Positions 5,925 to 36,610 of a DNA stretch of 64,000 nucleotides are shown in pieces (position 1 is the stretch's first letter; each line of letters begins with the position of its first letter). The stretch covers positions 7,327-71,326 of the forward strand of contig JAEEJZ010000079.1 in the NCBI GenBank assembly GCA_016282145.1, read 5' to 3'. This DNA is from Bacteroidales bacterium (lineage in GTDB: Bacteria > Bacteroidota > Bacteroidia > Bacteroidales > UBA932). Below the pieces are notes generated by a model. The model saw only the letters and a program-made list of their open reading frames with translations, searched no databases and had not been told where the DNA came from. Made by a program: the position numbers and the translations under genes.

Positions 5925-6650
5925 ATGAACAACGGATTGATGCGATATCTATTGGGCGCCGCCTTTGCAGCGGGCGTGGCCATCCTTACCGGCGCCGGCA
6001 TCTCCGGATACAGCCGGAGCGTCGCCGATATGGGCTGCAACTCCCTGGAGGTCAGTTTCGAGGGTGGCGAGCCTTTCCTCAAGGCAGAGGAAGTACTGGA
6101 CCTGCTGGAAACGGAATACGGTGTCTTTGTGGGGCAGCGTATCCAGGACATTCCCCTGAGCCGCATCGAGGCCATCCTGGACGAAAGCGGGCCCGTGAAG
6201 AAAAGCGAGGCCTGGATGAGCGGGGACGGGGTGCTGCACGTCTCCATTACGCAGCGCGACCCGGTCCTGCGCTTCAATGACGGCCGCAGCGGTTTCTATG
6301 TCGATGCGGACGGGGTCGTCTTTCCCCTGCATCCCAGCCACACCGCCGCCGTCCCCGTCGTCTTCGGACCGTGTCCGGAGGACGCCGACTGGCGCGGGAA
6401 GGTCCTTCGCACCTATGCTTTCCTTCAGAAAATGGAATGCGCCGCCGATTCCCTTTGCTGCACTTCGGGCGGCGAACTGACGCTCATCGGCACGCAGGGC
6501 GAGCGCATCCTGCTCGGGCAGCCGGAGAGCATCGAAAGGCAGTATCCGCTGCTGGAATGCTATTACAGCCGCATCGTGCCCGAAAGGGGCGCTTTCCGCT
6601 CCATCAATCTCAAATACGACAAGCAGATTATCTGCCGCCAGACAGACTGA
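5925..6650 (+). CDS. ftsQ: Cell division protein FtsQ (N-terminal membrane anchor plus POTRA-like region)
   Basis: 241-aa ORF directly after murC, with a single N-terminal hydrophobic segment. The call rests mainly on position and size. Confidence 0.75.
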   Translation: MNNGLMRYLLGAAFAAGVAILTGAGISGYSRSVADMGCNSLEVSFEGGEPFLKAEEVLDLLETEYGVFVGQRIQDIPLSRIEAILDESGPVKKSEAWMSGDGVLHVSITQRDPVLRFNDGRSGFYVDADGVVFPLHPSHTAAVPVVFGPCPEDADWRGKVLRTYAFLQKMECAADSLCCTSGGELTLIGTQGERILLGQPESIERQYPLLECYYSRIVPERGAFRSINLKYDKQIICRQTD

Positions 6651-8598
6651 TTCCGAGTTCAACTGGAGATTCTGCGCAGAGCGGCAGCCAGAGGATGAGG
6701 CTGGGGCCGTCCCAGGCCTGGTGGATACCCGCCTTGAAATCCTCGTACGCCGCCCCGTTCACCGTAACGGCAGCAGGCAGGCATCCCTCTCCCCGTACGA
6801 TAAGACAGAGGCCCTGCAGCGGCTTTTCCGCACTGGCTTCCACCTTCAGCGGGCCGGACAGGGCATTCAGGACATAGGCCCGCTCTTTCACCTCATAGGG
6901 CACTTCTTCCCCGTTGCAGCTCAGGCGCGGGGCGCGGAGCCAGGACTTCGCCAGCGGAAGCAGGGAGGCCGCATCGCCTTCCGTACAGCCGCAGAGCATC
7001 AGTTTCGTCATCTTGTTCCCTTCTATGCTGTGCGGCGCATTGTACTGGGTGGCCGTGTAGGTATGCGAAGGGGCATCGGCGACGCAGGCATAGCGGCCGA
7101 TGACATAATCCTGCGCCACGGGCCAGTGGTTGCGCCAGGGGAAATCGGAATATTCGGACCATCTGCCCGCATAGCGGTGGATTTCAGGGCCGCTGTGACC
7201 CTTTTCGTTCAGGCCGGGGCCATCCTCCAGGATCAGGAAGGGATTCCAGCGGCTGCGCAGGTAAGTGACCTGGATATTGGCACCGTCCAGCGAAGGCTCA
7301 TTCTGGCGCGGCTTTCCCTCGAAATTCCAGCCATATTCGGCACTGCGGCCGTCCATCGCGGCGACGGACATGATGCGCGAGGCTTCCAGCACATCCTCCG
7401 GGCACTGGGAGGGATGCAGGACCTGTAGACTCTGGCACCACTCGTACCACTTGTCCAGATGTGAACTCCAGACATCCATACGGCGTATGCCCACACCGTC
7501 CGGATAAAAGATATAGGTCTCCTCCGAGCAGTCGCCCCACTGGGTCTCCTCGCTCTGGTAGGGAATCTTCTGGTTCACGCCCACCGGCAGGTTGCGCCAG
7601 ACCACTACGGTCCGCGCCGGCGTATTCTCGAGGATACGAACACTGGAGAAGTCCGCGTGCTTGTCGCTCATACTCTCCGGGCAACCCCAGCCCGTCACCT
7701 TCTGGCGCTCCACGAACTCGTTGCACATCCAGTTGCCCTTCTCGGTCACGAAGCAGGGCGCATAGGAAATACCCCGCCAGAAGACCACCTTCCAAGGGTG
7801 GTCCTCACCGAATCCCACCACCACGTCCGGCACTTCTCCGCGCCAGCGCGCATCGAAGGCCTCGTAGTACTTCAGCGGGATATACCAGGCGCCGAAGGCC
7901 AGTTTCTCCGGCCCGGACGGCAGTATGCGCTCCTCAAAGACAGGTGCGACCGGGCGCACGAACTTCTCTTTCAGGACACGGGCGTAAGCATGCCTGTCGG
8001 CATAGATATTCAGTTCATCCAGCGCCCCGTCCAGGGAACTGTAGATAGGTATTTTCTTGTTCTCAAAGAAACTCGGGGTACGCACCGGCGTACGGCCGAT
8101 CCACAGGTCCCAGGCCTCCTGCTCCACCCAGGGCAGTTCCAGGGGCAGTTTCGCCACCTGGGTCCCGTCGATGGCGAGGAACAGTCCGCTTCCGGCACGG
8201 AACAGGGCCGTCAGGCGCGACCACTGCCGCAGCGGAAGGCCCGCGGGCGATTCGACGCTGACCCACTCCCCTGCCGAAGCCACGCTGAAATGCACCTTTC
8301 CCTGCGCATCCAGCCAAAGGGACCAGCCTCCGGGCGTTTCGTTATTCTGCCGGCAGGCCACCGGGCAGGGGCTCTTGGGGAAAGCCACCGGGCATACCCA
8401 GACATCCACCGTAAAATGCGTCGCCGGGGCCGGCACGTCGGCCGCAGGGACGACGATCCGGCTGTCGAAGCCGTCAAAAAAGGCCGCCTGGCCTTTTGCG
8501 CCGGCAACGGCTCCGTCGTCAAAAGAAAGGGAAAAAATTGCGGAAAGCGCCGCAAGGACGATACAGGATACAGCCATAATAGCGATGGTGCGGGTCAT
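6628..8598 (-). CDS. Secreted or anchored LamG (concanavalin-A-like jelly-roll) domain protein with a ~450-aa C-terminal region of unknown family
   Basis: ORF 6628..8625. The ATG at 8598 gives MTRTIAIMAVSCIVLAALSAIFS, a signal or anchor. The N-terminal ~190 aa look like Laminin_G_3 (FTVDVWV..., GGWSLWLD..GKVHFSV, LDELNIYADR). I did not recognise the rest. The 3' end overlaps ftsQ by 23 nt, convergently. Confidence 0.65.
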   Translation of the reverse strand: MTRTIAIMAVSCIVLAALSAIFSLSFDDGAVAGAKGQAAFFDGFDSRIVVPAADVPAPATHFTVDVWVCPVAFPKSPCPVACRQNNETPGGWSLWLDAQGKVHFSVASAGEWVSVESPAGLPLRQWSRLTALFRAGSGLFLAIDGTQVAKLPLELPWVEQEAWDLWIGRTPVRTPSFFENKKIPIYSSLDGALDELNIYADRHAYARVLKEKFVRPVAPVFEERILPSGPEKLAFGAWYIPLKYYEAFDARWRGEVPDVVVGFGEDHPWKVVFWRGISYAPCFVTEKGNWMCNEFVERQKVTGWGCPESMSDKHADFSSVRILENTPARTVVVWRNLPVGVNQKIPYQSEETQWGDCSEETYIFYPDGVGIRRMDVWSSHLDKWYEWCQSLQVLHPSQCPEDVLEASRIMSVAAMDGRSAEYGWNFEGKPRQNEPSLDGANIQVTYLRSRWNPFLILEDGPGLNEKGHSGPEIHRYAGRWSEYSDFPWRNHWPVAQDYVIGRYACVADAPSHTYTATQYNAPHSIEGNKMTKLMLCGCTEGDAASLLPLAKSWLRAPRLSCNGEEVPYEVKERAYVLNALSGPLKVEASAEKPLQGLCLIVRGEGCLPAAVTVNGAAYEDFKAGIHQAWDGPSLILWLPLCAESPVELGISLSGGR

Positions 8599-8599
8599 A

Positions 8600-8613
8600 T
8601 GTGCCCGAACACA
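8600..8613. promoter_or_regulatory. Degenerate (11/14) copy of the island palindrome, TGTGCCCGAACACA; possible weak LacI-type operator
   Basis: Compared by eye with TGTGTGCGCACACA at 20042 and 23247. It lies between the -7-like box (8614..8621) and the LamG start codon (8598). Confidence 0.35.
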
Positions 8614-8621
8614 CAAATATA
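8614..8621 (-). promoter_or_regulatory. Bacteroidota -7-type promoter box TATATTTG (minus strand) for the LamG gene
   Basis: The plus strand reads CAAATATA, a match to the TAnnTTTG consensus. It sits 15 nt upstream of the ATG at 8598. Confidence 0.45.
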
Positions 8622-8653
8622 GCAAAATATTTCCTTAAATCCATCTGAAAAAC

Positions 8654-8661
8654 TATATTTG
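8654..8661 (+). promoter_or_regulatory. Bacteroidota -7-type promoter box TATATTTG for the MBL hydrolase gene
   Basis: Exact TAnnTTTG match, 7 nt upstream of the ATG at 8669. It mirrors the box at 8614..8621. Confidence 0.5.
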
Positions 8662-8668
8662 TCCTGTT

Positions 8669-9949
8669 ATGGATAGACGAGATTTCATCAAAACCTCGCT
8701 GCTGGGCGGGGCAGCACTGTGCCTGACCGACTGGGAAAAAGCCTTTGCCATGGGACGCGACGACATCCAGGTCGGCAAAGCCTGGCAGGGCTGGAAAGAA
8801 GGCCAGTTCCAGATTCATTTCATCTATACTGGCGTCGCCGAATCGATGTTCCTCATCTTCCCGGACGGGACCACGATGCTGCTGGACTGCGGCGACTTCG
8901 ACGCGCTCGCCCGGGGCGAAAAGGCCGTTCCCCTGCTGCCCAGTGCGCAACGGCACGCCGGCGAATGGATCGCACGCTACGTCACGCGGGTCAATCCGGC
9001 CGTCACGGACGTGGATTACATGCTGCTCACCCACTACCATAACGACCACGCCGGCAGCGACCGCTTCTACGCGGAAAAAATCATCCGGGACGGGGAAGAA
9101 TACGCGCTCAGCGGCTTCTCGCAGGCGGCGGAGACGCTGAATTTCCGCAAAGCCATCGACCGCTGCTATCCGGATGCCGATGAGGTCCTGCAATATGCCG
9201 ATGCCGAAACCGTCGGCCATATGCAACGCTTCTACCGCTATATGCAGCGGCACCGCGGGCTGGAGATCGAAAAGTTCCGCCTCGGGGCCAGCGACCAGAT
9301 TGTCCAGTTGCACCATCCGTCGAAATACCCCCAGTTCCGCGTACGGAACATTTGCGGGGGCGGCTGCATCGCCGCCGAGGACGGCAGTATCACCGACCTT
9401 TTCGCAGCGCGGAAGGCCGCGGGCAAAGCGGTCAAGAGCGAAAATGCGATGTCCCTGGGCATGGTTTTCAGTTACGGGGACTTCCGCTTCTACACGGCCG
9501 GGGACTTCTCCGCCCGCTTCAAGGACCCTGACGGGACGCCGCGCTTCATCGAGGACGACATCGCCCGCGTCTGCGGCCCCGCCCACGTGGCCAAGGTCAA
9601 CCATCACGGTCACAACTCGATGAGCCGTGCCCTGGTCTCCGCCCTGCGCAGCCGGGTCTGGGTCAGTTGCGTCTGGGACCAGTTGCACAACCTGCCGCCC
9701 TGTATGGAACTGCTTTCCGACCGCAGCCTCTACCCCAGCGACCGTATCATCTGCCCCACCATCATGCCGGCGGAACGCCGTGCCAAGGACGGCGACGCCG
9801 CCTGGATGAAAGACATAGCCCGCCCCTCGTATGAGGGCGGGCATGTCGTCGTAAACGTCGAGAAGGGCGGCGGACGCTACTCAGTTTCCTACCTTTCTGC
9901 GCAGGATGAGTCTATGACCGTCCGCAGCGTCCTTCATTTCAAGGTCTGA
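8669..9949 (+). CDS. Tat-signal metallo-beta-lactamase-fold hydrolase, ComEC/COG2333-like subtype (candidate periplasmic nuclease or phosphodiesterase)
   Basis: 426-aa ORF. The twin-arginine motif is MDRRDFIKTSLLGGAAL. MBL motifs are LLDCGD, LLTHYHNDHAGS and a late AKVNHHGHNS, which resembles the HHGS motif of ComEC-type MBL domains. Confidence 0.75.
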   Translation: MDRRDFIKTSLLGGAALCLTDWEKAFAMGRDDIQVGKAWQGWKEGQFQIHFIYTGVAESMFLIFPDGTTMLLDCGDFDALARGEKAVPLLPSAQRHAGEWIARYVTRVNPAVTDVDYMLLTHYHNDHAGSDRFYAEKIIRDGEEYALSGFSQAAETLNFRKAIDRCYPDADEVLQYADAETVGHMQRFYRYMQRHRGLEIEKFRLGASDQIVQLHHPSKYPQFRVRNICGGGCIAAEDGSITDLFAARKAAGKAVKSENAMSLGMVFSYGDFRFYTAGDFSARFKDPDGTPRFIEDDIARVCGPAHVAKVNHHGHNSMSRALVSALRSRVWVSCVWDQLHNLPPCMELLSDRSLYPSDRIICPTIMPAERRAKDGDAAWMKDIARPSYEGGHVVVNVEKGGGRYSVSYLSAQDESMTVRSVLHFKV

Positions 9950-11956
9950 TTACTTGATGACATAGTTGAACGATTGTGCGCTTTCATCGTAATTGACACC
10001 ATAGAGGAGCGACATCGCATTACCTGAAGTAATCACCGTACCGTTCACGGAACCGGACACCTCCACAGGAGCGACGCTGGAGCCGATGCTGGCCTTGATC
10101 TGATTCTTTGCGAAACCGCCCACAAGCATACCGGCCTCGGATCCCCCAAGACAAGTAATCTTGCCGGAGAAGCTTCCGCCCTCGACGCTGGCTTCCTGCG
10201 ATTCCTTGGAGGAATTGCCGACCCATCCGAAGAAACCACCGACATCCAATATGGCCGTTCCTTCGATATCGGCCGTGGAGGAACAGTTCTTAATGGTCTG
10301 GGCAAATCCCCAGTGATGACCGGCGATACCGCCGATTTCCGCGAAATCCTGTGCGCCTTCTATGGTAATCTTGCCGGTATTGGTACAATTCTCCATATAA
10401 GGAGTGACACCGACCAATCCGCCCACACGGACCTTGCCATTACCTTTCAAGATGATATCCCCGCTGTTGCGGCAATTGGACATGACGCCCCAGAGGCTCG
10501 CATTTTTACTGTCGTTTTCGCCATCGGGCCAGCCAACGATGCCACCCAGGTGTGCCCAGTCTTTAGCGGTGTTGACTTCCACGGTAATTTTACCGCTGTT
10601 CGTGCAATCGCTCACGCTGCATCCCCTGTTTTTACTGGGGGAATCATCGGACGGATTATTGAACGCGCCGAAAACGCCTCCCATACAGTGCTGATGGTTC
10701 TGACCGGTAAACGGTTCTCCGGTACTGGAAACCACCTTGATCACCAGTTCTCCGGAATTGGAGCAGTCTGACACTGCGCCATAATAGGTTCCTGCGACAC
10801 CGCCGGTAAAGATTCGTGCGGGAGATGTCGACATCCCTTCCACCTTGCTTTCCGTCCAGGATATCTTGCCCTCGTTCTTGCACTTGTCCAGAGGGCCGAT
10901 AGCCCAAGAAACCACACCGCCCAGTGCGGTGGACACTTTCTTGCTGTAGAACTCACCCTTTTCGATGTTTTCAGGGTCCAGAGGATCCCTGACCGGGCAG
11001 GCTCGCCTGGCGTGATAGCCACCGGAGAGGCTCAGGTCGCCATAATTCTCGCAGTTGGAAAGCGGGGTCAACGAATAGGATACGACGCCGGCCACACCCT
11101 GCGTGGTGAAGGCTCCATTGTCCTTAACTACCAGGGATATCTTACCATAGTTCTTGCAGCCTGAAATGACGACACCGGACTCTTCCTTGGGCGAAGAGAC
11201 ACCGATGAGCCCGGCCACCAGATTGCTGAACTTGTCGGTATGACTGATGGTACGGGTAACATCGGCCTTGTTGATGCAGTCCTTGACGACACCGTTGTTG
11301 CGGGCCACCAGGGCGCCGAAAATCAGGGTATCGGGCTCAAAGGAACAGGAAGCATCGATGACGATGTCCTTCAGCGTTCCGCTGTTGACCAGGAACAGCG
11401 GCTTGGTGGACACCAGATTCTTGATGGAATGGCCCTGCCCGTCCAGCACGCCGGAGAAGTTCTCCGCCGGGACCAGGGTAATCCCCGCCATATCGATGTC
11501 AGCTGCCAGGCGGGCCTCATCCAGGGACACTTCGGTCAACTTGGACAGCCACTCCGCAAGGGCGGCGCCGGTCTTTATGGTCACCTTGTTGTCTCCCTTC
11601 TGCTGTACCGTAAGGGTATTGGTAGTAGAAGTCAGTTCGGGGGCGAACACCACAGAGCCGACCCTGCCGTCCACATTTTCGTTGTCCGTCACGCTGATGG
11701 TCACGGTGACCGTACCGCTGCCCGAATCCGGAGATACGGTAATCCAGTCCGGGGCTTCGGAAGTCCAGGAACCGTCAGCATAGACCTTCATCGTCTGGCT
11801 TTCCGCGCCGACAGCCTCAAACTGCAAGGTTGCAGGGGCAACCCGCACAACCGTAGCCGGAGTATCGGTGCCGCCACCGCCGCCACCACCGCCGGGATTC
11901 TTTTCGCAGGCACCCAGCACTGCGAGAGACATGATCAGGAAAAAGAACTTTTTCAT
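9950..11956 (-). CDS. Surface lipoprotein: poly-Gly linker, BACON-like Ig domain, then a GLUG-type repeat beta-helix
   Basis: 668-aa ORF with lipobox LAVLGAC followed by EKNPGGGGGGGG. The BACON-like segment is TLQFEA..SWTSEAPDWITVSPDSGSGTVTVTISV. It is followed by FSGVLDGQGHSIKNL and about 9 repeats of C-x-N-x-G ... GG[IV]xG. Confidence 0.7.
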   Translation of the reverse strand: MKKFFFLIMSLAVLGACEKNPGGGGGGGGTDTPATVVRVAPATLQFEAVGAESQTMKVYADGSWTSEAPDWITVSPDSGSGTVTVTISVTDNENVDGRVGSVVFAPELTSTTNTLTVQQKGDNKVTIKTGAALAEWLSKLTEVSLDEARLAADIDMAGITLVPAENFSGVLDGQGHSIKNLVSTKPLFLVNSGTLKDIVIDASCSFEPDTLIFGALVARNNGVVKDCINKADVTRTISHTDKFSNLVAGLIGVSSPKEESGVVISGCKNYGKISLVVKDNGAFTTQGVAGVVSYSLTPLSNCENYGDLSLSGGYHARRACPVRDPLDPENIEKGEFYSKKVSTALGGVVSWAIGPLDKCKNEGKISWTESKVEGMSTSPARIFTGGVAGTYYGAVSDCSNSGELVIKVVSSTGEPFTGQNHQHCMGGVFGAFNNPSDDSPSKNRGCSVSDCTNSGKITVEVNTAKDWAHLGGIVGWPDGENDSKNASLWGVMSNCRNSGDIILKGNGKVRVGGLVGVTPYMENCTNTGKITIEGAQDFAEIGGIAGHHWGFAQTIKNCSSTADIEGTAILDVGGFFGWVGNSSKESQEASVEGGSFSGKITCLGGSEAGMLVGGFAKNQIKASIGSSVAPVEVSGSVNGTVITSGNAMSLLYGVNYDESAQSFNYVIK

Positions 11957-11978
11957 AAAGGAAGGATTAAAGGGTTGT

Positions 11979-12965
11979 TTATTTTTTATCCGTATAAGCG
12001 AAATCCGTCAGTACCGGATAATGGTCGGAAATATAGAAAATTCCATAATTCCTTTTATCAACGGTATAAGTCAGCGCCTTGAGCGGGCCGCTGAAGAAGA
12101 TATGGTCGATCAGACCGCCGCTCTTCCCATAACCGTTATCCGTATTCATGTCCCGGGAACTGGATTTTTCCGCATCCAGCCGGGCATAGCCCAGCGGGAA
12201 TTTGATCAGCATCTGCAACGCGTCGGTATCCGAATTCGTATTGAAGTCCCCGATCAGGAAGACGGGATCCTTGCATCCCGGGCCCAGGACTCCACCGATC
12301 ATTCCGGGAATCCGGCTCAGGTGCAGGTTGCTTTCCATAATCCGCAGGTCCCCGGCATTGGGGCAGTTCTTGTTGTTCTGGAAATGCGTGTTGAACAGCC
12401 ACACCGGCCGGCCGAGCTGTTCCTTGTCGGCCAGCTTGAGCCAGGAGGTAATCCAGGGATGCGTGGTATGCCAGGAGCCATAATCGTTGGACTTGTTCTT
12501 GACCGAGACCTGATCCGGCGTATCGCTGTGCCAGAAGGTCCCCTTGTCTGCCAGGTCGAAACGGGACTTCTTGTAGAGTATCGTCTTTGAAGTTTCGTCC
12601 GTGCTCGTTTTCAGGATATCCTTTCCCGTCTCGCGGCCGATGCCGTAAAGGCCGTACTCGTCCTTCACCTTGGAGAGGATATACTCCGCCTGCACCCGTT
12701 CCACCTCCTGCATTCCGATGATATCCGGCTTGCGGGTAAGGATGAACTTGCAGACCGCATCCTTCCGGTTGTCCCAGATATAGTCCCCGTCAGCGGGTTC
12801 GGGATAACGGATATTGAAGGTGCAGATCAAAAGGTCCGCCGTTTCGACCGGCGGGGTCGGCGTCGGATCGTCTCCCTTTTCCCCGCAAGCGCAGAATACG
12901 CCGAGGGAAAGGGCCAGGACCGCCGTCAGAAAGCATTTATTGGATGACATATACTTTTTCATCAA
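11979..12965 (-). CDS. Endonuclease/exonuclease/phosphatase (EEP) family lipoprotein
   Basis: 328-aa ORF with lipoprotein signal ...LGVFCACGEKGDD. EEP motifs are TFNIRY, GMQEV, NTHF, IGDFNT, IDHIF and SDHYPV. Confidence 0.85.
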   Translation of the reverse strand: MMKKYMSSNKCFLTAVLALSLGVFCACGEKGDDPTPTPPVETADLLICTFNIRYPEPADGDYIWDNRKDAVCKFILTRKPDIIGMQEVERVQAEYILSKVKDEYGLYGIGRETGKDILKTSTDETSKTILYKKSRFDLADKGTFWHSDTPDQVSVKNKSNDYGSWHTTHPWITSWLKLADKEQLGRPVWLFNTHFQNNKNCPNAGDLRIMESNLHLSRIPGMIGGVLGPGCKDPVFLIGDFNTNSDTDALQMLIKFPLGYARLDAEKSSSRDMNTDNGYGKSGGLIDHIFFSGPLKALTYTVDKRNYGIFYISDHYPVLTDFAYTDKK

Positions 12966-12975
12966 CTGAGATTGA

Positions 12976-14796: not shown

Positions 14797-14808
14797 ATCT
14801 TCACAAAA

Positions 14809-17800: not shown

Positions 17801-18084
17801 TCCACGGTCGCCCTGCCGGCAGGGACCTTCACAGAAGCGGAAGTATAACCCAGGCAGGAGACCTCCAATGTAACCTCATCGGTACTAACGCCGCCGAGGG
17901 TCCATTTACCGTCGATGTTGGTGACTGTCCCTCCTTTTGCGCCCTTAATCACGATACCGGCGCCGGGGATGCCCTCCCCTGTGGTATCGGTGACTCTTCC
18001 GGACAGCGTTCGCTGAGCCAGCGCCACCAGGCTGGCTGCTCCGAACAGGAACAGCGTTAAACCGATTTTTTGGAATGTATTCAT
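14809..18084 (-). CDS. susC: SusC/RagA-family TonB-dependent transporter
   Basis: 1091-aa ORF with a signal peptide, a carboxypeptidase-regulatory-like domain (GRVTDTTGEGIPGAGIVIKG), a plug region (VVVGYGTQKKVNLTGAI) and a C-terminal ...FGVDIQF. There is no N-terminal STN or anti-sigma domain. Confidence 0.93.
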   Translation of the reverse strand: MNTFQKIGLTLFLFGAASLVALAQRTLSGRVTDTTGEGIPGAGIVIKGAKGGTVTNIDGKWTLGGVSTDEVTLEVSCLGYTSASVKVPAGRATVDLVLENDNLMLEETVVVGYGTQKKVNLTGAITAVKGDDLQNRTAANVTSMLQGAVPGLNIVASSAVMNEAPDINIRGYTSINGASPMVLIDGAEGDLSRVNPNDVESISVIKDGAAAAVYGARAAFGVILVTTKSGSAAEGKATIRYSGRWGWQEPTTSTDFETRGYWSVYTINKFWDARYPGDKYLKYNDNDMNELLARVNDVTENPARPWVVEETVGGVKQWKYYGNNDWYHKLFTDRNPLHQQSLSVTGGGKNFKYFISGLWDHRQGIININPDYLDKYQLRARFEANVTKWMSISNNTSYYDQKYNYPATTMSNVDRTFTHLAAHALPIFPFQNPDGSWVYYSQYFTSSYAVANAAHIKFSENKDRHIERKNEFANTTEINITPIKQLRLTGNFTFRKRRDHTTARMTSFQYKMYPDEEPITKSDGVGTNQLDEKTWNYSYMSANVFATYEDNFDGHHVTAVLGGNWETQYSQYLEAIAYNLISDKLSDLSLAGTAADGSSKQYIDGWQSEYALLGFFGRFNYDYKGRYLLEVSGRYDGSSRFARGHRWGFFPSASAGWRISEEPFFAPAKDVMNNLKVRFSFSSLGNQVVSNYAYLRKISVDNADYMFGEGALARSASISAPNAGDLSWETVQQYNLGLDAGFFKDRLQFTGEAYIRNTLGMLVSGEALPAVYGASSPKQNSANLRTRGYELSVSWKDQFRLAGSPFGYGVSFNLSNYDSYITKYDNNPNKLLSDYYVGKRLGEIWGFKADKLFANDIEAMDYAEAVDLSYVTAGMGYGWSAGDLKYEDLDGDGTIGIGANTVDDPGDRRILGNSLPSLSYGATFSVDWYGFDASVFFQGTGDHYWYPPRWCFPFWGPYSNPMQSFMRRDFLKDVWDYNNTDAYFPRARGYIAEISGGTLNRTNTRYLQNCRYLRVKNVTVGYTIPQNLTRKIKLEKIRVYFTGENLACWSPLFDHCSYLDPEAMEHDDSESYGRSFYPWQKSFMFGVDIQF

Positions 18085-18104
18085 AAATTGGGGGTTAATG
18101 ACGA

Positions 18105-18299
18105 TTAAAAATAAATGATGCCCTGGTCATCTTCCGACATGCCTTCCAGCCCCGGGGTGTCCGGCCCTTCCGTTTCACCCGTCTGCGGGACCATGTCCTG
18201 CGTGACGACCCCGGTGTGGACCATACCCTCCTTTGCCTCGCAGCCGGAAAACAGCAGCGCGAGGCTCAGGATAACGATGAGGGGCAGGGGTTTCATCAT
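18105..18299 (-). CDS. 64-aa acidic, Pro/Gly-rich lipoprotein of unknown function
   Basis: MMKPLPLIVILSLALLFSGC-EAKEG... has a classic lipobox. Its start overlaps the upstream EEP gene stop (ATGA), and it ends 20 nt upstream of susC. Coding status is supported by the signal peptide and the coupling, not by homology. Confidence 0.55.
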   Translation of the reverse strand: MMKPLPLIVILSLALLFSGCEAKEGMVHTGVVTQDMVPQTGETEGPDTPGLEGMSEDDQGIIYF

Positions 18300-20023
18300 T
18301 GATAATCAAACACCAGTGTAGCCGTAATGGGCCAGTGGTCAGAAATGTATTGTACACTGGAATAAGTACGGTAGTCCGTCCCGAACGTACCTGCCTTTAG
18401 GCCATGCTTGCTGTTTTCGTAACAGTAACGGTAAAAAATATGGTCGAGGTTGGAACGGTTGCCGCTGCAAGTACCGCTGCTGTAGATGGTGGAAAAGCCG
18501 GAACAGCTCGTATCGAAACCGTTATAACTCGTCGGGTAGGACGTCTTGCTGGTCTTGCCGTCCTGATTGCGGGCAAAATAGTAGTTGGACCATCGGCTGT
18601 CCCCTTTCTCCGGATTGCAGATGTCGGTCGCGGACTCATTGAGGTCTCCGGTCACGATCATCGGCAGGTGCTCGGAATTAATCGCTTCCAGCTGGTCATA
18701 CAGAACGACGGCCTCAGCAAGGCGGGCGGCATAGGCCTCATCCGTATAATGGGCCGTAAAGTGGGTATTGACGAAATAGAACACATAGCCGTTCTCCTTC
18801 CAGCGGAACTTGATCCACGAGCAGCAGTGACCGTCATCGGAACCCACTGACGAGGGATTGTTCGAAAGCCAGAAGGTTCCCTTGTCGATAATGTCGAACT
18901 TGCTCGTCTTGTAGAAGATGGCATTGGAGGAGTCTGTGTTATAATCTTTCTTGTTCCACCAGGAACCGCTGGAACCGCTGGATTCCTTACCATAATCTTC
19001 GCCCAGGCCGTAGGCCGCATAACCGGAAGTATTGTCAAGGATATTCACCCGCTGACGGTATTCGCACTCCTGGGTACCGATGATATCGGGACTCATCTCA
19101 TTGAAGAAGGCATAGATGCCCGGTTTGCGGACACTCCAGTAATGGCTGCTGTCCCAGCCGCTGTTGTCGTCATTCTTCTGACAGGCGACATTGAAGGACC
19201 AGACCGTCAGTTCCGGACGGGTGCTCAGGCTGGGCGGCGGCATCAATCCGGACAGGGTGGTAATCTGGGAACGGGTGATGGTAAAGGGCGTGCTCACCGA
19301 TTTGGTGGCATAGTTCCCGTTCTCCATATTGGCCCGGATAGTCATCCCGTCATACTCCCCTGCCGGCAGCACGAAGTAGAACTCCAGGGGCACCGTTTCG
19401 TCCAGTTCCAGATTCGGGGGACAGTTCATTGTCACCTTCCGGTTCTCCGCGGAACTGCCCGTCATGGTCAGGGTATTCCCCCCGCGGGCCACGTTTCCCG
19501 GTCCGCTGACGCTGGAAGCAAAAAGAAGTTCCAGGCTGCTCACGTCAATGGTTCCGGTCAGACGGAGCCGAAGTACGCCGCAGAGGTTCTTCATCGAGAA
19601 GGCGGAGATGTCATTGGAGGTGGCAGAAAGCATGGGATTGGAGCCGGGGGCGAAAGTCCCCTCGGTATATTCCACTTCAGCAGGCAGGGTAAAGGTGAAG
19701 GTACTCGCGCCGTTGTAGGTCGCGCTAGGCGGATAAACGGCAAAGAACGTGTCTCCGGCCGGAATCGGCCCATAGAAATTGCCGACGGAAGTGCCTTCCC
19801 CGCTGCTCAGGACAAATGTTTTGCCACTGGCGTCCGAGGTAGAGAACACCTTCATCTTGTCTCCGCGGCACCAAATGACGCTGTTTCCGTCAAGGGCTGT
19901 CTTGGAAGTCTCCTCTCCGTACACCGTAATCTCGGCATACTCCGCTACCTGGGCCTCCTCCTTGCTACAGGAAAAGAGCAGGGCAAGGAGAGCAGGCGCA
20001 AGGAATTTAACGCTAATTTTCAT
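18296..20023 (-). CDS. Surface lipoprotein: fimbrillin-like N-terminal module fused to a C-terminal EEP domain
   Basis: ORF 18296..20056. The ATG at 20023 gives MKISVKFLAPALLALLFSC-SKEE. The N-terminal module carries SKTALDGNSVIWCRGDKMKVF, the pattern seen in Bacteroidales fimbrillin-like lipoproteins. C-terminal EEP motifs are SFNVAC, GTQEC, NTHFT, TGDLNE, LDHIFY and SDHWPI. Confidence 0.8.
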   Translation of the reverse strand: MKISVKFLAPALLALLFSCSKEEAQVAEYAEITVYGEETSKTALDGNSVIWCRGDKMKVFSTSDASGKTFVLSSGEGTSVGNFYGPIPAGDTFFAVYPPSATYNGASTFTFTLPAEVEYTEGTFAPGSNPMLSATSNDISAFSMKNLCGVLRLRLTGTIDVSSLELLFASSVSGPGNVARGGNTLTMTGSSAENRKVTMNCPPNLELDETVPLEFYFVLPAGEYDGMTIRANMENGNYATKSVSTPFTITRSQITTLSGLMPPPSLSTRPELTVWSFNVACQKNDDNSGWDSSHYWSVRKPGIYAFFNEMSPDIIGTQECEYRQRVNILDNTSGYAAYGLGEDYGKESSGSSGSWWNKKDYNTDSSNAIFYKTSKFDIIDKGTFWLSNNPSSVGSDDGHCCSWIKFRWKENGYVFYFVNTHFTAHYTDEAYAARLAEAVVLYDQLEAINSEHLPMIVTGDLNESATDICNPEKGDSRWSNYYFARNQDGKTSKTSYPTSYNGFDTSCSGFSTIYSSGTCSGNRSNLDHIFYRYCYENSKHGLKAGTFGTDYRTYSSVQYISDHWPITATLVFDYQ

Positions 20024-20041
20024 CTTCTTGTGTTTTAAAAA

Positions 20042-20055
20042 TGTGTGCGCACACA
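20042..20055. promoter_or_regulatory. Perfect 14-bp palindrome TGTGTGCGCACACA; candidate LacI-family operator at the susCD-operon promoter
   Basis: Self-complementary with a central CG. The 18-mer AAATGTGTGCGCACACAC is identical at 20039..20056 and 23244..23261. It lies between the -7 box (20062..20069) and the ATG at 20023. Confidence 0.6.
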
Positions 20056-20061
20056 CAATTG

Positions 20062-20069
20062 CAAATATA
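20062..20069 (-). promoter_or_regulatory. -7-type promoter box TATATTTG (minus strand) for the EEP-susC-susD operon
   Basis: The plus strand reads CAAATATA. It sits 6 nt upstream (in the transcription sense) of the palindrome, so the expected start site falls in or next to the operator. Confidence 0.5.
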
Positions 20070-20119
20070 GAATATTTGCCTGAATTATCAAAATAATTTT
20101 AACGGGGTATTTTAACAAA

Positions 20120-20148
20120 CTCCCGGCAGGGATCGGACCTGCCGGGAG
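20120..20148 (-). terminator. Intrinsic terminator after the 947-aa GLUG gene
   Basis: Perfect 11-bp stem CTCCCGGCAGG / CCTGCCGGGAG with a 7-nt loop. On the minus strand it is followed by TTTGTTAAAAT. It sits 26 nt past the stop at 20174. Confidence 0.5.
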
Positions 20149-20173
20149 CCTGAAAAAAAGCGCTAAAACTTCC

Positions 20174-23017
20174 CTACTCGATGCCTGACACAGCCGGAGT
20201 GGACAGGACAAAGTTAAAGTCAACCTTGGAAGCGTCGCTGGTGCCGCTGGTAGCATCGTAAAGGGAACTTGAAGCTCCCATCAGCCACTTGCAGGCCTTC
20301 GCTGTCGTAGTGATTGTTTCGCTGCTGCCCGGCACATCCGCGAACTCAATGCGGCAATTGTTGACAATCAGAATCGGATTCGACGCGGTACCGAAGACCA
20401 ATTTATAAGAAGTACTGCTGGTACTGAAGGTCTTGCCGGCGATGAGCGCCGTCCAGTCGGAACAATTATCAGCATTCGTCTTGTTACTGATCGTACAAGC
20501 CACCACACAGTCCGTGACATTGTCGGTCACGTCACTGGTAGGAGCTTCAACACGGCCGAACAGACCAGCCATATAATAGTCTTTTTTCTGATAACTGGTC
20601 ACCGTAGAACTCGGCGTATTGCCGGAACCACCAGAATAGAAATTACCGCTGGTGATCAGGCCGGTACTCGTGCACCCACGCACCTCCGTGTCAGAGGGGT
20701 AGAATCTCGCAAGGATACCGCCTGTGATGGACGAGCCCGTCGTGTTATATGGACCAAGGTATCCGTTGTTCGTGCAGTTCAGCACCCTCGTGGGCTTATA
20801 GCTACTACTATAGCCTCCGCAGATGCCACCGATATAGGTTGTAAGATTGCCAGCCCAGGTGAAGATATATCCGTTGTTGGTGCAATTGAGTATGCTTCCC
20901 TTGGAGTTTCCGCAGATACCGCCTGCATTGAAGTCCTTCTTCACATTCTGCCCGGACGGGTCGCTTACCAAGCGGCCGTTGTTGATGCTGTATTCCACGG
21001 TACCGCTCGATGTCATATAGCCGACTATGCCACCGAACCAGGTCTCATGATCATGCTTTTTGTAGTGGAAAATTTCGCCGCTGTTGGTATTGGGGGTGCC
21101 ATCCTCCGCTTGGGTCAAAACCAGATTCGAAGAAGTCCCCGCACCCAGGATTCCTCCCATCGAAAGGTCGGAATTGACCACGGCATTGTCGTAAACCTTG
21201 CCTGTGTTCGAACAGCCCCGCACCGTACACTTATAGATGATAGTACCTATAACTCCTCCATAAGCCTGACGGTGATCGCTGACTGTTTCAGCTCCGAGAC
21301 AGATCTGGCCTTCGTTGAAACATTTGTCAATATAGTTGTTGGTGTTGTTGTTCTTACCGAACCTGCCGAGAACGCCACCGACGGCGACGGCCTTGTCCCA
21401 GTTGTTGGTCCCGCTCGTCACGGATGCCGCGGCGTTGGTGACGTTGGCGTGGTTGCTGCATTCCTCCATTCTGAAAGATTGGCAGGTAGCCTTGCCCATA
21501 ATGCCACCGATGCAGGAAACACCCACGCAGTTGTTGGTCACGACACCATAGTTCTCGCAGCCCGAAACGGTGAGCCCTTGGGAATCGTTCCAGCCCACAA
21601 CGCCACCCATCGCAGAATCCTGCGTGGTCGCGCAAGTCGAGTTGTCGGTAACGGGAGCCCGGTTGACGCAGTTCTCCAAAGTCACGTTCTCATTGGTCAT
21701 ACCGACGATTCCTCCAAACGCATGCTTGGTAGTAACGGCAGAGGATACGGAAACGGGAACGAAGTTCGTAACGTTCTGAATCGTGCTGTTACGGTGAGCA
21801 TAGCCCACAATACCCGCATACAGCCAAGCATCGGAGCTTGACTTTGTCATGGTTATAGAACTCGAGCCGTCGGCCGTGGTGCCGTTAGAAGAGCCAAAGA
21901 CAGTATTCTTAAGGACCGCCGCATATCCATTCGATGACCCGAGGGTACTGATGAACCCAAGCCTGTTACTGGAAGCATCCTCTACGGTGAAATTATAAAT
22001 CTTATGGTTCTGTCCATTGAAAATGCCTACAAATTCCGAAACCGGCGTCCAGGCATATCCGCCCAGATTGATATCCGCACCGAGTTTCACCTCATCGCCT
22101 TCACCATAAGCCCCGGCCTCTGCCAGGCGGCGCCACATCTTGAGCTGGGCGGCCGTCATAATGGTCGAAGGGCACCAGGTACTCTTATTGTCAATCTCAC
22201 CCAGGTTGGCACCGCCATTCCGTTCATAAGTCACGGACTCGGATGTATTCAGCATCGTCTTGCTGCCGTCTTCGAGGGTCAGGATCAATCTGTATCCGGC
22301 CGTGAATGCCTTAGGCCAGATAACCATAAAATAATCCCCGGCGGGGAAAGCCGCAGGATCCTCCCCGTCCTTGCAGACCAGAGTCACCTGTACTCCTTCA
22401 GCACTGGAATAATCCATCCGCGGAGCACCTTCCCCAGCGTAGATGAAATGGCTGGTACCGCAGATCACCTCGCTGTTGTTCCCCTTGAGTTGGACAGAGA
22501 CTACATCGCTGCGGGTCAGGGAAACCTTGACGACGGCGAACTGATTCTGGAAATAAAAGGAACCGGTACCGGAATCCTCCGCCGTAGAGACCAGGGCGTC
22601 GGAAGACACGCAACGGCCCAGCTGGACCGTCTGGGTTCCGGGAATCTTGACACCAATCCAGGATTCCGCCGGCTTATAATTATTGACGACCCCATAAGGC
22701 GCAACGGCTAAATAATTTGACACTTCCGCGGCAGAGCCGGAGAAAGACGCAGTCTGCTTGCCCTCGGAACCGGGGGCGATGTCAAATTGGTTTTTGGATG
22801 TTCCATCAAAGACGGCAATGGCGTCCCCGTCGTTCCAAACAAAAGAAGAGCCGCTGATATTGGCCTTGGAATCTTCCGCTGCGGCGGTAAAGGTCATAGG
22901 AACCTTAACCGTCTCACCCCCATCGATGGGGTCAGTATCCGGAGCAAGCTCCTTGTTACAGGAAAGGATGGCAAAGGAAGCAAGGCCCAGCGCAAGAATG
23001 GAAAAATACTTTTTCAT
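20174..23017 (-). CDS. Large surface lipoprotein: fimbrillin-like N-terminal module plus a GLUG-type repeat beta-helix
   Basis: ORF 20174..23068. The ATG at 23017 gives MKKYFSILALGLASFAILSC-NKE. The N-terminal module (DSKANISGSSFVWNDGDAIAVF) parallels that of the 18296..20023 protein. It is followed by FVGIFNGQNHKIYNF and about 10 repeats of C-x-N-x-G ... GG[IV]xG. Confidence 0.72.
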   Translation of the reverse strand: MKKYFSILALGLASFAILSCNKELAPDTDPIDGGETVKVPMTFTAAAEDSKANISGSSFVWNDGDAIAVFDGTSKNQFDIAPGSEGKQTASFSGSAAEVSNYLAVAPYGVVNNYKPAESWIGVKIPGTQTVQLGRCVSSDALVSTAEDSGTGSFYFQNQFAVVKVSLTRSDVVSVQLKGNNSEVICGTSHFIYAGEGAPRMDYSSAEGVQVTLVCKDGEDPAAFPAGDYFMVIWPKAFTAGYRLILTLEDGSKTMLNTSESVTYERNGGANLGEIDNKSTWCPSTIMTAAQLKMWRRLAEAGAYGEGDEVKLGADINLGGYAWTPVSEFVGIFNGQNHKIYNFTVEDASSNRLGFISTLGSSNGYAAVLKNTVFGSSNGTTADGSSSITMTKSSSDAWLYAGIVGYAHRNSTIQNVTNFVPVSVSSAVTTKHAFGGIVGMTNENVTLENCVNRAPVTDNSTCATTQDSAMGGVVGWNDSQGLTVSGCENYGVVTNNCVGVSCIGGIMGKATCQSFRMEECSNHANVTNAAASVTSGTNNWDKAVAVGGVLGRFGKNNNTNNYIDKCFNEGQICLGAETVSDHRQAYGGVIGTIIYKCTVRGCSNTGKVYDNAVVNSDLSMGGILGAGTSSNLVLTQAEDGTPNTNSGEIFHYKKHDHETWFGGIVGYMTSSGTVEYSINNGRLVSDPSGQNVKKDFNAGGICGNSKGSILNCTNNGYIFTWAGNLTTYIGGICGGYSSSYKPTRVLNCTNNGYLGPYNTTGSSITGGILARFYPSDTEVRGCTSTGLITSGNFYSGGSGNTPSSTVTSYQKKDYYMAGLFGRVEAPTSDVTDNVTDCVVACTISNKTNADNCSDWTALIAGKTFSTSSTSYKLVFGTASNPILIVNNCRIEFADVPGSSETITTTAKACKWLMGASSSLYDATSGTSDASKVDFNFVLSTPAVSGIE

Positions 23018-23246
23018 AGCTGTAATCTGGTTAAGGTTAATCTTCCGCATCCCATACGGGTGCACCATCTAAATCCGTCAGGTCCTCTCTGCCGGACCCG
23101 AAAGAATCGCACAAGACACGCTTGAACGATGCTTCAATTGGAAAAGCGTTCGGGGCGGAATACTTTCCCCTCTCACTGAGATGAAGTCTGATTTTATTCA
23201 TATAATATATATTAAGTTATTATCGTCGATTCCCTTTTTCCGTAAA

Positions 23247-23260
23247 TGTGTGCGCACACA
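23247..23260. promoter_or_regulatory. Second perfect copy of the palindrome TGTGTGCGCACACA; candidate LacI-family operator
   Basis: Identical 18-mer context to 20039..20056. It lies in the 308-nt gap between the lacI-like stop (23326) and the GLUG gene start (23017). Confidence 0.6.
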
Positions 23261-23325
23261 CTTATCCATATAATCTTGTCGCAATATTACGACATATTTT
23301 TTAAACCGCCAAATTTTTTGGATTT

Positions 23326-24393
23326 TCAGACCTCGTCGTGCCAGTAAGGCAGGCTCTCGCGAAAGACGATATCGATGGGAAGATACTCCCGTAAGGTCTT
23401 GTCCGGAGCACCGTAGAGAAGGAAATGCAGGATGGATTCCACGGAATAGAAGCCCTGCCTCTCCGGATGCTGGTTGATCAGGAAATCCAGGGTCCCCTCC
23501 TCCACGCAGCGGGCATTGCCCTCGGTCACGTCAAAACCGCCCACCACCAGGTTTCCCTTTCCGCCGGAAAGCGCATCGGAAATCAGATACCCTGCCGAGA
23601 TGACCACGGCTACGCCGCCGACGCCCGGATGCCCCGCCAGGAAAGCACGGATATCGGCATGGCTCTTGACCGGATTATCTATGGAGAAGTAGCCCTCCAC
23701 GACATCCCGGTTCCGCTTTCCTTCGCTGAAGAAGGACTTGAAAGACGCCATCCGGACAGCCGAGTTATTGGACATCTGCGTACCGATACGCCGGGGCAGG
23801 AGCAGGGCCAGTTTCCTTCCGGAGGGCGTGAGTCCGTCCATCAGGTGAGCAAGGAGCCGGCCGCAGGCCTCCTGGTCTGCAAGATAGGCGGCTACCGGAT
23901 GAGTCTCCGCCACTTTACCGTCCAGGAACACATAGGGAATCTCCCTGGAATCCAGCACGTTGCAGAGTTCCCGGGTCTCGTCCACAAAGGTGGTACCCAG
24001 GATGACGGCCGAGCAGCTCAGGGAAGCCACGGTATGGAAGGCATCCCGGCAGGAAAGGGAGTTAAACTGGTCGAAGAACACGAACTTGCTCTTGATGGAG
24101 ATGTCTCCATATTCCACAAAGGCTTTTTCCACACCCTTGCGCACCAGGTCCCAGTACTCGCCCTTCTCAGAAAAGGGAATCGCCACCACGATCTTGAACG
24201 ATTTCCGGGTCTTCTTGAAGGCCACAGCAGAAGTGTGCAGATTGTAATTGTAAGACTGTGATTCCAACACGGACTGGACAGCAGCCAGCGCCTCCGGAGA
24301 GACCTTTCCACGGTTGTGCAAGACACGGTCAACCGTCCCCGCCGACACGCCTGACAGGGCTGCAATCTGCTTTATGGTAAGTTGTCCGGGCAT
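23326..24393 (-). CDS. LacI/PurR-family transcriptional regulator
   Basis: This is the C-terminal part of the 885-aa read-through ORF 23326..25983. The ATG at 24393 gives MPGQLTIKQIAALSGVSAGTVDRVLHNRGKVS, the LacI helix-turn-helix, followed by a periplasmic-binding-fold sensor domain. The ATG at 24432 (MKKNPYIVRNFER...) is an alternative start. Confidence 0.88.
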   Translation of the reverse strand: MPGQLTIKQIAALSGVSAGTVDRVLHNRGKVSPEALAAVQSVLESQSYNYNLHTSAVAFKKTRKSFKIVVAIPFSEKGEYWDLVRKGVEKAFVEYGDISIKSKFVFFDQFNSLSCRDAFHTVASLSCSAVILGTTFVDETRELCNVLDSREIPYVFLDGKVAETHPVAAYLADQEACGRLLAHLMDGLTPSGRKLALLLPRRIGTQMSNNSAVRMASFKSFFSEGKRNRDVVEGYFSIDNPVKSHADIRAFLAGHPGVGGVAVVISAGYLISDALSGGKGNLVVGGFDVTEGNARCVEEGTLDFLINQHPERQGFYSVESILHFLLYGAPDKTLREYLPIDIVFRESLPYWHDEV

Positions 24394-24431
24394 ACGCTCA
24401 AAATTCCGCACAATATACGGATTTTTTTTCA

Positions 24432-24439
24432 TACCTTTG
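24432..24439 (+). promoter_or_regulatory. Candidate -7-type box TACCTTTG for ftsA-ftsZ
   Basis: Matches TAnnTTTG, 32 nt upstream of the ftsA ATG (24472) and preceded by a T8 tract. It overlaps the alternative lacI start codon on the other strand. Confidence 0.4.
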
Positions 24440-24471
24440 TTAGCTGTCCACGGACTATTTTCACTAACTAT

Positions 24472-34763: not shown

Positions 34764-34773
34764 ATGCAGATTT

Positions 34774-36597: not shown

Positions 36598-36610
36598 CGT
36601 ATTTCCTCCT

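Follow-up and report, generated by a model that had tools for sequence, protein, structure and literature searches.

Ten genes between positions 6628 and 24393 of the 64-kb stretch of Bacteroidales bacterium DNA analysed here (contig JAEEJZ010000079.1; the whole stretch is referred to below as the window) form a Sus-like locus which we tentatively read as belonging to a LacI-repressed regulon for foraging a phosphodiester-linked glycosylated polymer, with a teichoic-acid-like poly(polyol/glycosyl phosphate) or a phosphoglycan favoured as the substrate. The reading of a Sus-like system usually starts from its glycoside hydrolases (GHs), and when we compared the ten proteins with Pfam and NCBIfam profile models there were no matches to GH, polysaccharide lyase (PL), carbohydrate esterase (CE) or sulfatase models. 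The locus encodes two complete EEP phosphoesterases and a hydrolase of the metallo-beta-lactamase fold (MBL) which resembles Pce and ComEC, and these bear out the phosphoesterase theme of an earlier reading of this DNA made without database searches (the sequence-only reading). The general scheme of that reading, in which a phosphodiester-linked polymer is cleaved at the surface, imported by SusCD and finished in the periplasm, also holds up, and its hedge of 'teichoic acid or phosphoglycan' suits the data better than its nucleic-acid headline. We infer the substrate solely from gene context, and the mechanism also from export signals and intact active sites.

The core of the locus is a minus-strand operon running from 20023 to 9950 with intergenic gaps of -4 to 22 bp. 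It begins with NEEP (18296..20023), a lipoprotein with an N-terminal domain of ~270 aa followed by an EEP domain (PF03372), and continues with a 64-aa lipoprotein (18105..18299; lipobox present, 4-bp overlap with the preceding gene), a SusC-like TonB-dependent transporter (14809..18084; TIGR04056 at 845 bits, with Plug and CarboxypepD_reg domains), a SusD-like lipoprotein (12976..14796; PF07980, E 1e-45) whose gene lies 12 bp from susC, the second EEP lipoprotein, EEP1 (11979..12965; PF03372, E 1e-12), and a BACON+GLUG lipoprotein (9950..11956; Pfam BACON and Glug, PF07581). All ten genes proposed by the sequence-only reading were recovered from the open reading frame (ORF) map and Pfam matches, either at the same coordinates or a few codons off. 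The window has two of the features by which a polysaccharide utilisation locus (PUL) is recognised, adjacent susC and susD genes and a linked regulator, and lacks the third, co-localised carbohydrate-active enzymes (CAZymes), which are found in orthologous loci (GH63-like, GH3, GH36, GH2 and SGNH enzymes).

The catalytic motifs are complete in both EEP proteins (FNI50, QEV86, NTHF192, GDFN239, DHIF287 and SDH313 in EEP1; FNV277, QEC318, NTHF419, GDLN459, DHIF527 and SDH561 in NEEP), as had been claimed for them earlier, and the set is invariant across 22 orthologues. The closest PDB match of EEP1 is the uncharacterised 3g6s, followed by BT3783 (E 2e-15 with the EEP1 profile), and the best matches of NEEP are 3mpr and 4c1r (E 2e-21), both of which are structures of BT3783 (3MPR is the apo form). 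Of the characterised homologues BT3783 lies nearest to both EEPs, at ~25–30% identity, and solved structures of CCR4, nocturnin and TDP2 follow; the PDB matches did not include DNase I, ExoIII or sphingomyelinases. The lipobox cysteine is followed by acidic residues in EEP1 (C-GEKGDD), NEEP (C-SKEE), SusD (C-DD) and both GLUG proteins (C-NKE in the second, GLUG2), a feature that marks surface export in Bacteroidota. From these signal-peptide features both EEPs should be surface-exposed, and they are the sole surface proteins with a recognisable catalytic domain. The predicted signals agree with the topology proposed earlier, with the EEPs at the surface and the MBL hydrolase in the periplasm. 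We could not confirm the 'fimbrillin-like' label that had been given to the N-domain of NEEP using Pfam or PDB; this domain of the 575-aa NEEP is homologous to the N-domain of the 947-aa GLUG2 (E 2e-8).

The EEP1 orthologue group comprises 47 clusters with 54–99% identity, after which there is a gap down to 38%, and its members all come from uncultured Bacteroidales whose genome records are mostly rumen or ruminant-gut metagenome-assembled genomes (MAGs). The NEEP–small lipoprotein–SusC–SusD–BACON/GLUG–EEP1 gene set is kept in ~16 loci (relatives' loci are given as L001, L002 and so on), and orthologues of the MBL (79–85% identity) and LamG (64–79%) proteins nearly always adjoin it. Sister EEP clades sharing 35–40% identity occur in other SusCD loci alongside PKD/beta-propeller lipoproteins, GH31, GH97 and SASA esterases, or else in FecR-controlled loci with GLUG-like lipoproteins, and in four loci they adjoin glpK–glpF. 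We note that in L017, L023, L025 and L027 the EEPs lie beside GH31, with GlpK (827 bits) and an aquaglyceroporin found across a divergent GT2 gene.

The MBL gene (8669..9949, plus strand; Lactamase_B E 2e-8, with a TAT_signal match) is convergent with the BACON+GLUG end of the operon and divergent from the LamG gene. Its 426-aa product begins MDRRDFIK, an RRxF twin-arginine translocation (Tat) signal, and consists of this signal and the MBL domain only, without choline-binding repeats or the channel and OB domains of ComEC. The metal ligands are conserved as HYHNDH, AGD and NHHGH (H122/H124/D126/H127, D279 and H312/H313), giving the HxHxDH ... D ... HH pattern shared with the MBL domains of Pce/CbpE and ComEC. 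When the profile of this family (1126 homologues) was compared with PDB, Pce/CbpE structures 1wra and 2bib came first (E 1e-9) and ComEC MBL domains next (E 3e-8), which backs the 'ComEC-type' label of the sequence-only reading, though behind Pce. We predict that the protein is a periplasmic phosphodiesterase of the Pce/ComEC type. It differs from both in its Tat signal and in the company kept by its family, which is fused to GH28, GH78, CE7 and SGNH modules; amongst the homologues P0377, P0380, P0391, P0396 and P0403 the partners are GH28 plus an FGE-sulfatase, Metallophos, AXE1, GH78 and GDSL modules. These fusions suggest a so far unrecognised carbohydrate-associated family of esterases or phosphodiesterases.

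The ten genes appear to be controlled as one regulon. The sequence TGTGTGCGCACACA is a perfect 14-bp palindrome with exactly two copies in the window, one at 20042..20055, 19 bp upstream of the NEEP start codon and just downstream of a TAnnTTTG -7 box (20062–20069), and the other at 23247..23260, upstream of GLUG2. A degenerate copy, TGTGCCCGAACACA, lies at 8600..8613 in the 70-bp intergenic region between the divergent LamG and MBL genes and is found at the same place in L088, L089 and L007, so that all three promoter regions of the locus are covered, two by perfect sites and one by a degenerate site. The pattern TGTGN6CACA occurs five times in the window against 0.42 expected, and the background amounted to 14 operator sites in ~1.1 Mb of unrelated loci. 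An identical 14-mer precedes NEEP in eight loci (L006, L007, L008, L009, L011, L015, L088 and L089). The palindrome is also found between GH3 and GH63 (related sites in L002 and L015), between GH63 and the short-chain dehydrogenase/reductase (SDR) gene (L090), before the SDR–Nramp–PfkB–Gnd module (L088), before an NPP gene (L010), and in L004 before SusC, before SDR–LamG/LacI and before a gene for a 1250-aa protein. Three sites occur in L085, before GDPD–GH63–MBL and GH36, before LamG, and between the SDR operon and LacI.

The regulator itself is the LacI-family protein at 23326..24393 (minus strand; Pfam LacI helix-turn-helix (HTH) plus Peripla_BP_4), a kind of regulator less usual in PULs than hybrid two-component system or extracytoplasmic function sigma factor regulators, and LacI orthologues adjoin the same operator in L004 and L085. 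Among the NCBIfam models the window protein matches RbsR best (E 5e-13 over residues 5–232), with a score far below the model cutoff, and the CytR model covers just the HTH end (residues 5–96, E 6e-4). We have rejected CytR/PurR-type regulation on these grounds, and with it the link to the nucleoside and purine sensors which had been drawn earlier. Phylogenetic footprinting thus points to a single sugar-type LacI regulon acting at a predicted operator, which would place phosphodiesterases, exo-glycosidases, an esterase and a set of sugar-acid catabolic genes under common control with the surface and transport module.

These further members are seen in the relatives. Most of them have a GH63-like (PF22422) alpha-glucosidase and several have GH3; a GxDLY/SGNH esterase and a HAD-IB phosphatase recur among them, and one relative has an NPP-type phosphodiesterase, a CE15-like esterase and a Hepar_II_III protein. 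L085 has orthologues of the MBL (79%), GH63 (71%), LamG (64%), LacI (68%) and SDR (80%) proteins as well as GDPD, GH36, a beta-glucuronidase-like GH2, an NPP-type phosphodiesterase, an SGNH esterase, PfkB, Gnd and Nramp, and the GDPD, a weak match to the UgpQ model, heads the operator-controlled GDPD–GH63–MBL operon. We note that the regulon looks more complete at positions 1968–21890 of L085, where the SusCD is a different one (30% identity to the window SusD). Four phosphoesterase folds (EEP, MBL, GDPD and NPP) are therefore found in the one predicted regulon, its GH families (GH63-like, GH3, GH36 and GH2) are all exo-acting, and no endo-glycanase was found in any related locus. Because the EEPs are the only recognisable surface catalysts, the GHs are exo-acting and there are four phosphoesterase folds, we picture a polymer with phosphodiesters in its backbone or at its branch points, whose units are substituted with esters and with glucosyl or galactosyl groups. 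For PfkB the models point to a KDG-kinase-like or IolC-like protein and not to a ribokinase; we considered inositol catabolism from the IolC-like similarity but did not adopt it as the KDG-kinase-type models score higher.

The window itself holds a trimmed copy of this system. The sister-strain locus L088 lies at the same genomic site with 96.4% DNA identity over 16.3 kb, and in a blastn comparison L088 1–16307 corresponds to window 22964–6656 and L088 20866–20984 to window 6638–6520. Between LamG and ftsQ, L088 holds four extra genes encoding an SDR, an Nramp-family transporter, a KDG-kinase-like PfkB and Gnd, the last a bona fide 6-phosphogluconate dehydrogenase, and this module has its own perfect operator. 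Relative to L088 the window carries a clean 4.56-kb deletion (junction 6639..6655) removing these four genes downstream of LamG, which altered the last ~6 LamG residues (VELTILCK* in L088, VELGISLSGGR* in the window) and left LamG overlapping ftsQ by 23 bp. GH63 and GH3 are absent from the entire 64-kb window. The sequence-only reading had called the locus CAZyme-free, and while this stands for the ten window proteins, it fails as a defining property: as the window has lost genes and the relatives carry glycosidases, the term describes the reduced strain and not the system. The window locus is not an intact unit, and the strain, having deleted the cytoplasmic module, either uses genes elsewhere in its genome or is losing the pathway.

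On this evidence we suggest the following course of events. The two beta-helix GLUG lipoproteins and SusD would hold a polyanionic substrate at the cell surface, where the EEPs, to judge from their localisation signals and intact active sites, would cut or uncap phosphoester bonds to give fragments that could be imported by SusC and the small lipoprotein. The Tat-exported MBL phosphodiesterase and the LamG protein would finish the fragments in the periplasm, where the fuller versions of the regulon would add GDPD, NPP, a HAD phosphatase, GH63-like and GH3/GH36/GH2 exo-glycosidases and an SGNH esterase. In these versions the SDR, transporter, KDG-kinase-like PfkB and Gnd would feed a sugar or sugar-acid product into central metabolism, and a sugar-type LacI repressor bound at TGTGTGCGCACACA would control all of the units.

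Several observations weigh against this interpretation. The nearest characterised EEP, BT3783, is a phosphomonoesterase and not an endo-phosphodiesterase, and the surface localisation predicted for the EEPs is drawn solely from signal-peptide features. The SDR, KDG-kinase-like PfkB, Gnd, CE15, Hepar_II_III and beta-glucuronidase-like GH2 point to uronic or aldonic acids, which are not typical of classical teichoic acids, and the MBL fusion partners GH28, GH78 and AXE1 suggest plant-wall glycans. The GLUG or LamG proteins could be glycanases of a kind not yet recognised, and the adjacency to GlpK/GlpF and GlpA (the latter near L004) may be coincidental.

A narrower version of the proposal, which we regard as unlikely, is that this is the first Sus-like system dedicated to Gram-positive teichoic-acid-type polymers, with the EEPs acting as endo-'teichoicases', the GLUG proteins as binders, and the periplasmic MBL, GDPD and NPP, a GH63-like alpha-glucosyl-polyol hydrolase and the esterase stripping the fragments. 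In the broader proposal as well, a teichoic-acid-type substrate would fit the Pce-like MBL, the GDPD, the GH63-like enzyme, the esterase and the nearby glycerol genes. The GH63-like enzyme is related to enzymes releasing alpha-glucosyl or mannosyl groups from glycerate, and the regulon esterase could strip D-alanyl groups. GlpQ, a member of the GDPD family, degrades poly(glycerol phosphate) teichoic acids (PMC7086022, Walter et al. 2020); a GDPD gene occurs in the L085 regulon, and there is none in the window. We found no literature linking SusC/SusD or PULs to teichoic acids.

An ordinary glycan PUL, in which the EEPs are BT3783-type phosphomonoesterases removing phosphate decorations and the depolymerase is an unrecognised glycanase or lyase residing in the GLUG beta-helix or the LamG C-terminal domain, also seems to us improbable. 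BT3783 is a Mg-dependent mannose-6-phosphatase of a yeast-mannan PUL (PMC4978465, Cuskin et al. 2015; PDB 3MPR/4C1R), so there is a precedent for an EEP inside a PUL acting on a phosphorylated glycan, and being closest to both EEPs it lends support to the sugar-phosphatase part of the alternative which the sequence-only reading had offered. The mannan PUL is rich in GH92, GH76, GH38 and GH125, none of which occurs here (GH92, GH76 and GH38 were found neither in the window nor in related loci), and BT3783 is a single accessory enzyme there, whereas here two EEPs belong to the invariant core and have surface-type signals; a phosphatase that strips decorations would be expected to be periplasmic. 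The uronate-type catabolic module suits a glycan PUL, while the three further phosphodiesterase families in the regulon do not.

The other part of that alternative, the hidden glycanase, turns on the GLUG and LamG proteins, and no match was found that reveals one. Lyases and hydrolases often have a beta-helix fold, and an AlphaFold2 model of the BACON/GLUG protein (pLDDT 88.9) shows a BACON domain and a right-handed beta-helix, with weak, generic whole-fold Foldseek matches to GH49, tailspikes and fucoidan lyase (TM 0.16–0.28). The closest folds are those of the BoGH5A BACON domain, 3n6z and the N-terminal beta-helix of IgA1 protease, and for the GLUG fold the best (3n6z and the IgA1 protease domain) are non-catalytic. 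We rejected the GLUG protein as a hidden GH or PL, having obtained no Pfam or PDB sequence match and no specific fold match to one, and regard the BACON/GLUG protein, from its modelled fold, as a candidate substrate-binding surface protein. Its distant relatives include fusions to purple-acid-phosphatase and metallophosphoesterase domains. Eight consecutive glycines right after the lipoprotein cysteine region (residues 21–29; window 11860–11890) are probably a flexible tether for the surface protein. GLUG2 (20174..23017, minus strand; a weak Glug match) combines the NEEP-like N-domain with a long GLUG-type beta-helix and is 24–25% identical to the BACON/GLUG protein over ~570 aa.

The LamG protein (6628..8598, minus strand; Sec-type signal, PF13385 E 2.5e-14) has a Laminin_G_3 domain followed by a highly conserved C-terminal domain of ~430 aa, and the family (229 homologues, 55–98% identity) is conserved like an enzyme. 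Members share an operon with GH63 and an esterase, and in other genomes their neighbours are GH2, Hepar_II_III and MFS genes. For the C-terminal part there was no match to Pfam or PDB in profile searches even at E<=10, and in an AlphaFold2 model from a 33-sequence alignment (pLDDT 72.6) residues 220–520 are unreliable and Foldseek returned LamG and carbohydrate-binding module matches alone. A fold search had been proposed earlier as a means of placing the LamG C-terminus or the GLUG proteins in a GH or PL family; no such placement resulted, with the LamG model being poor, and neither protein could be linked to a known GH or PL family. The LamG protein is predicted to be periplasmic.

We consider nucleic-acid use, the headline of the sequence-only reading, to be distinctly unlikely. 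It would have the EEPs act on extracellular DNA or RNA as DNases or RNases like BT3563, with SusCD importing oligonucleotides (or the system processing extracellular DNA), the ComEC-like MBL and, in relatives, NPP finishing them, and PfkB serving as a ribokinase under an RbsR-like LacI. There is some evidence for this, as BT3563 of Bacteroides thetaiotaomicron, an EEP lipoprotein from a TonB-receptor operon, has been shown to be a DNase, takes part in biofilm formation and is exposed at the surface or on outer membrane vesicles, and variant loci carry a BACON-domain protein (PMC8851478, Bechon et al. 2022). ComEC MBL domains are among the top PDB matches of the MBL profile, the nearest solved EEPs beyond the Bacteroides clade are CCR4, nocturnin and TDP2, RbsR is the best LacI model, and in L010 the operator precedes a gene for an NPP-type phosphodiesterase. 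However, neither the window nor the ~16 related loci contain a nucleoside phosphorylase or hydrolase, a nucleotidase, a nucleoside transporter or a deoxyribose gene, and the co-regulated genes encode instead GHs, an SGNH esterase, GDPD, NPP, SDR, PfkB and Gnd. PfkB does not score as a ribokinase, Pce ranks above ComEC for the MBL, and EEP1 is just 30–33% identical to the tandem EEPs of the Alistipes locus L062, which we call BT3560-like by architecture alone.

The least probable explanation is the uptake of polar-lipid head groups, such as glycosyl-glycerols and glycerophosphodiesters from rumen plant and microbial lipids (galactolipids, phospholipids, inositol-phospho-ceramide glycans and lipoteichoic acid anchors). 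It has in its favour the GDPD, GH36 alpha-galactosidase, GH2 and SGNH 'lipase/acylhydrolase' of L085, the GH31 and GlpK–GlpF beside sister EEPs, the GlpA near L004 and the origin of the loci in ruminant-gut MAGs. Against it, molecules this small can usually be taken up without SusCD, surface enzymes and a pair of large beta-helix binders, the glycerol genes are only loosely adjacent, and we found no literature on the use of inositol-phospho-ceramide glycans by Bacteroides.

The sequence-only reading had also held that no SusCD system dedicated to nucleic acid has been described, which is too strong, as PusCD (PMC8115612) and BT3560–3563 (PMC8851478) are precedents. The Pus loci of Flavobacterium johnsoniae have a SusCD-like pair with phosphodiesterases or phosphomonoesterases instead of CAZymes, and have been proposed to scavenge phosphodiesters, for example lipid head groups and nucleic acids (PMC8115612, Lidbury et al. 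2021). In gene content the window locus is similar in combining a SusC/SusD-like pair with phosphoesterases and beta-helix lipoproteins (the latter appear as 'polygalacturonase-like' hypothetical proteins in Pus). The differences are that Pus is induced by phosphate depletion, whereas the window locus has a sugar-type LacI and appears to be controlled through a palindromic operator, with no adjacent PhoBR gene; that the Pus enzymes are of the Metallophos and PhoA types rather than EEP and Pce-type MBL; and that glycosidases and carbon catabolism belong to the wider regulon here, from which it follows that carbon rather than phosphorus is probably gained. The BT3560–3563 operon is similar in architecture, having a TonB-dependent receptor, two EEP lipoproteins and, as here, a hypothetical protein, and its strain variants carry a BACON-domain protein, as the window operon does; LacI, GLUG, MBL and LamG partners are not reported there, nor is a nutrient role for BT3563. 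We found no literature characterising the combination of GLUG, EEP, Tat-MBL and LamG proteins under a LacI regulator, and nothing relevant on GLUG with BACON or on glycosyl-inositol with Bacteroides.

The locus occupies an unusual position inside the dcw cluster, which reads murD-ftsW-murG-murC-ftsQ, locus, ftsA-ftsZ, with the 17.7-kb locus breaking an otherwise canonical cluster between ftsQ and ftsA-ftsZ (window 5925–25890). The G+C content is 0.60–0.62 in the flanks and 0.51–0.56 across 10–24 kb, and more distant orthologous loci sit elsewhere and not in the dcw position. We do not favour a mobile-element origin for this position, as there is no integrase or tRNA among the annotated neighbours of the locus and L088 has the locus at the same site. 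An exact-match look-up of the window SusD returned one 6-kb contig only.

Within the locus, the order SusD, EEP and then BACON/GLUG given by the sequence-only reading is right and peculiar to the lineage of the window. EEP1 precedes BACON/GLUG on the SusD side in the window, L001, L088 and L089, while the order is BACON/GLUG and then EEP1 in all more distant orthologues (compared in L002–L015 and L090), and this is a lineage-specific swap. The GLUG2 stop codon is followed by a terminator-like hairpin read from the sequence (20114..20148, minus strand), with a GC-rich stem, CTCCCGGCAGG ... CCTGCCGGGAG, and the T-run TTTGTT, which splits GLUG2 from the operon. The small acidic lipoprotein directly upstream of SusC (59–64 aa) is conserved across orthologous loci including L088 and L089, with the C-terminal motif G.EGM.ED.QG.I.F conserved in the window, L002 and L003, and could be a subunit that associates with SusC. 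The long antisense ORFs (up to 769 aa) that overlap genes at 13021–15330 (plus strand), 16585–18060 (plus), 8519–9844 (minus) and elsewhere are artefacts typical of 55–62% G+C and not genes. The window also contains a second Sus-like pair at 31401–39838 (SusC 36611–39838 and SusD 34774–36597), accompanied by a 1129-aa fn3/DUF4957/DUF5123 protein, and a site near the start of this SusC, TGTGCATTAGCACA (39780–39793), resembles the operator arms.

Loci that use phosphoesterases as their surface enzymes are almost unstudied, with Pus and BT3560–3563 being the sole leads we found. The window is of lower value in itself, as it is a reduced copy which has lost glycosidase and catabolic genes, and the interest lies in the family, which is widespread in ruminant-gut Bacteroidales and now has a defined (predicted) operator and regulon, four phosphoesterase folds and exo-glycosidases only. 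Among the uncharacterised proteins, those of the LamG-plus-430-aa, GLUG lipoprotein and Tat-MBL families are candidates for new activities. To our knowledge there is no PUL for phosphodiester-linked glycopolymers such as teichoic acids or phosphoglycans, and the family provides the testable hypothesis that Bacteroidota forage such polymers. If the teichoic-acid version were true, the system would be a dedicated way for rumen Bacteroidales to feed on dead Firmicutes.

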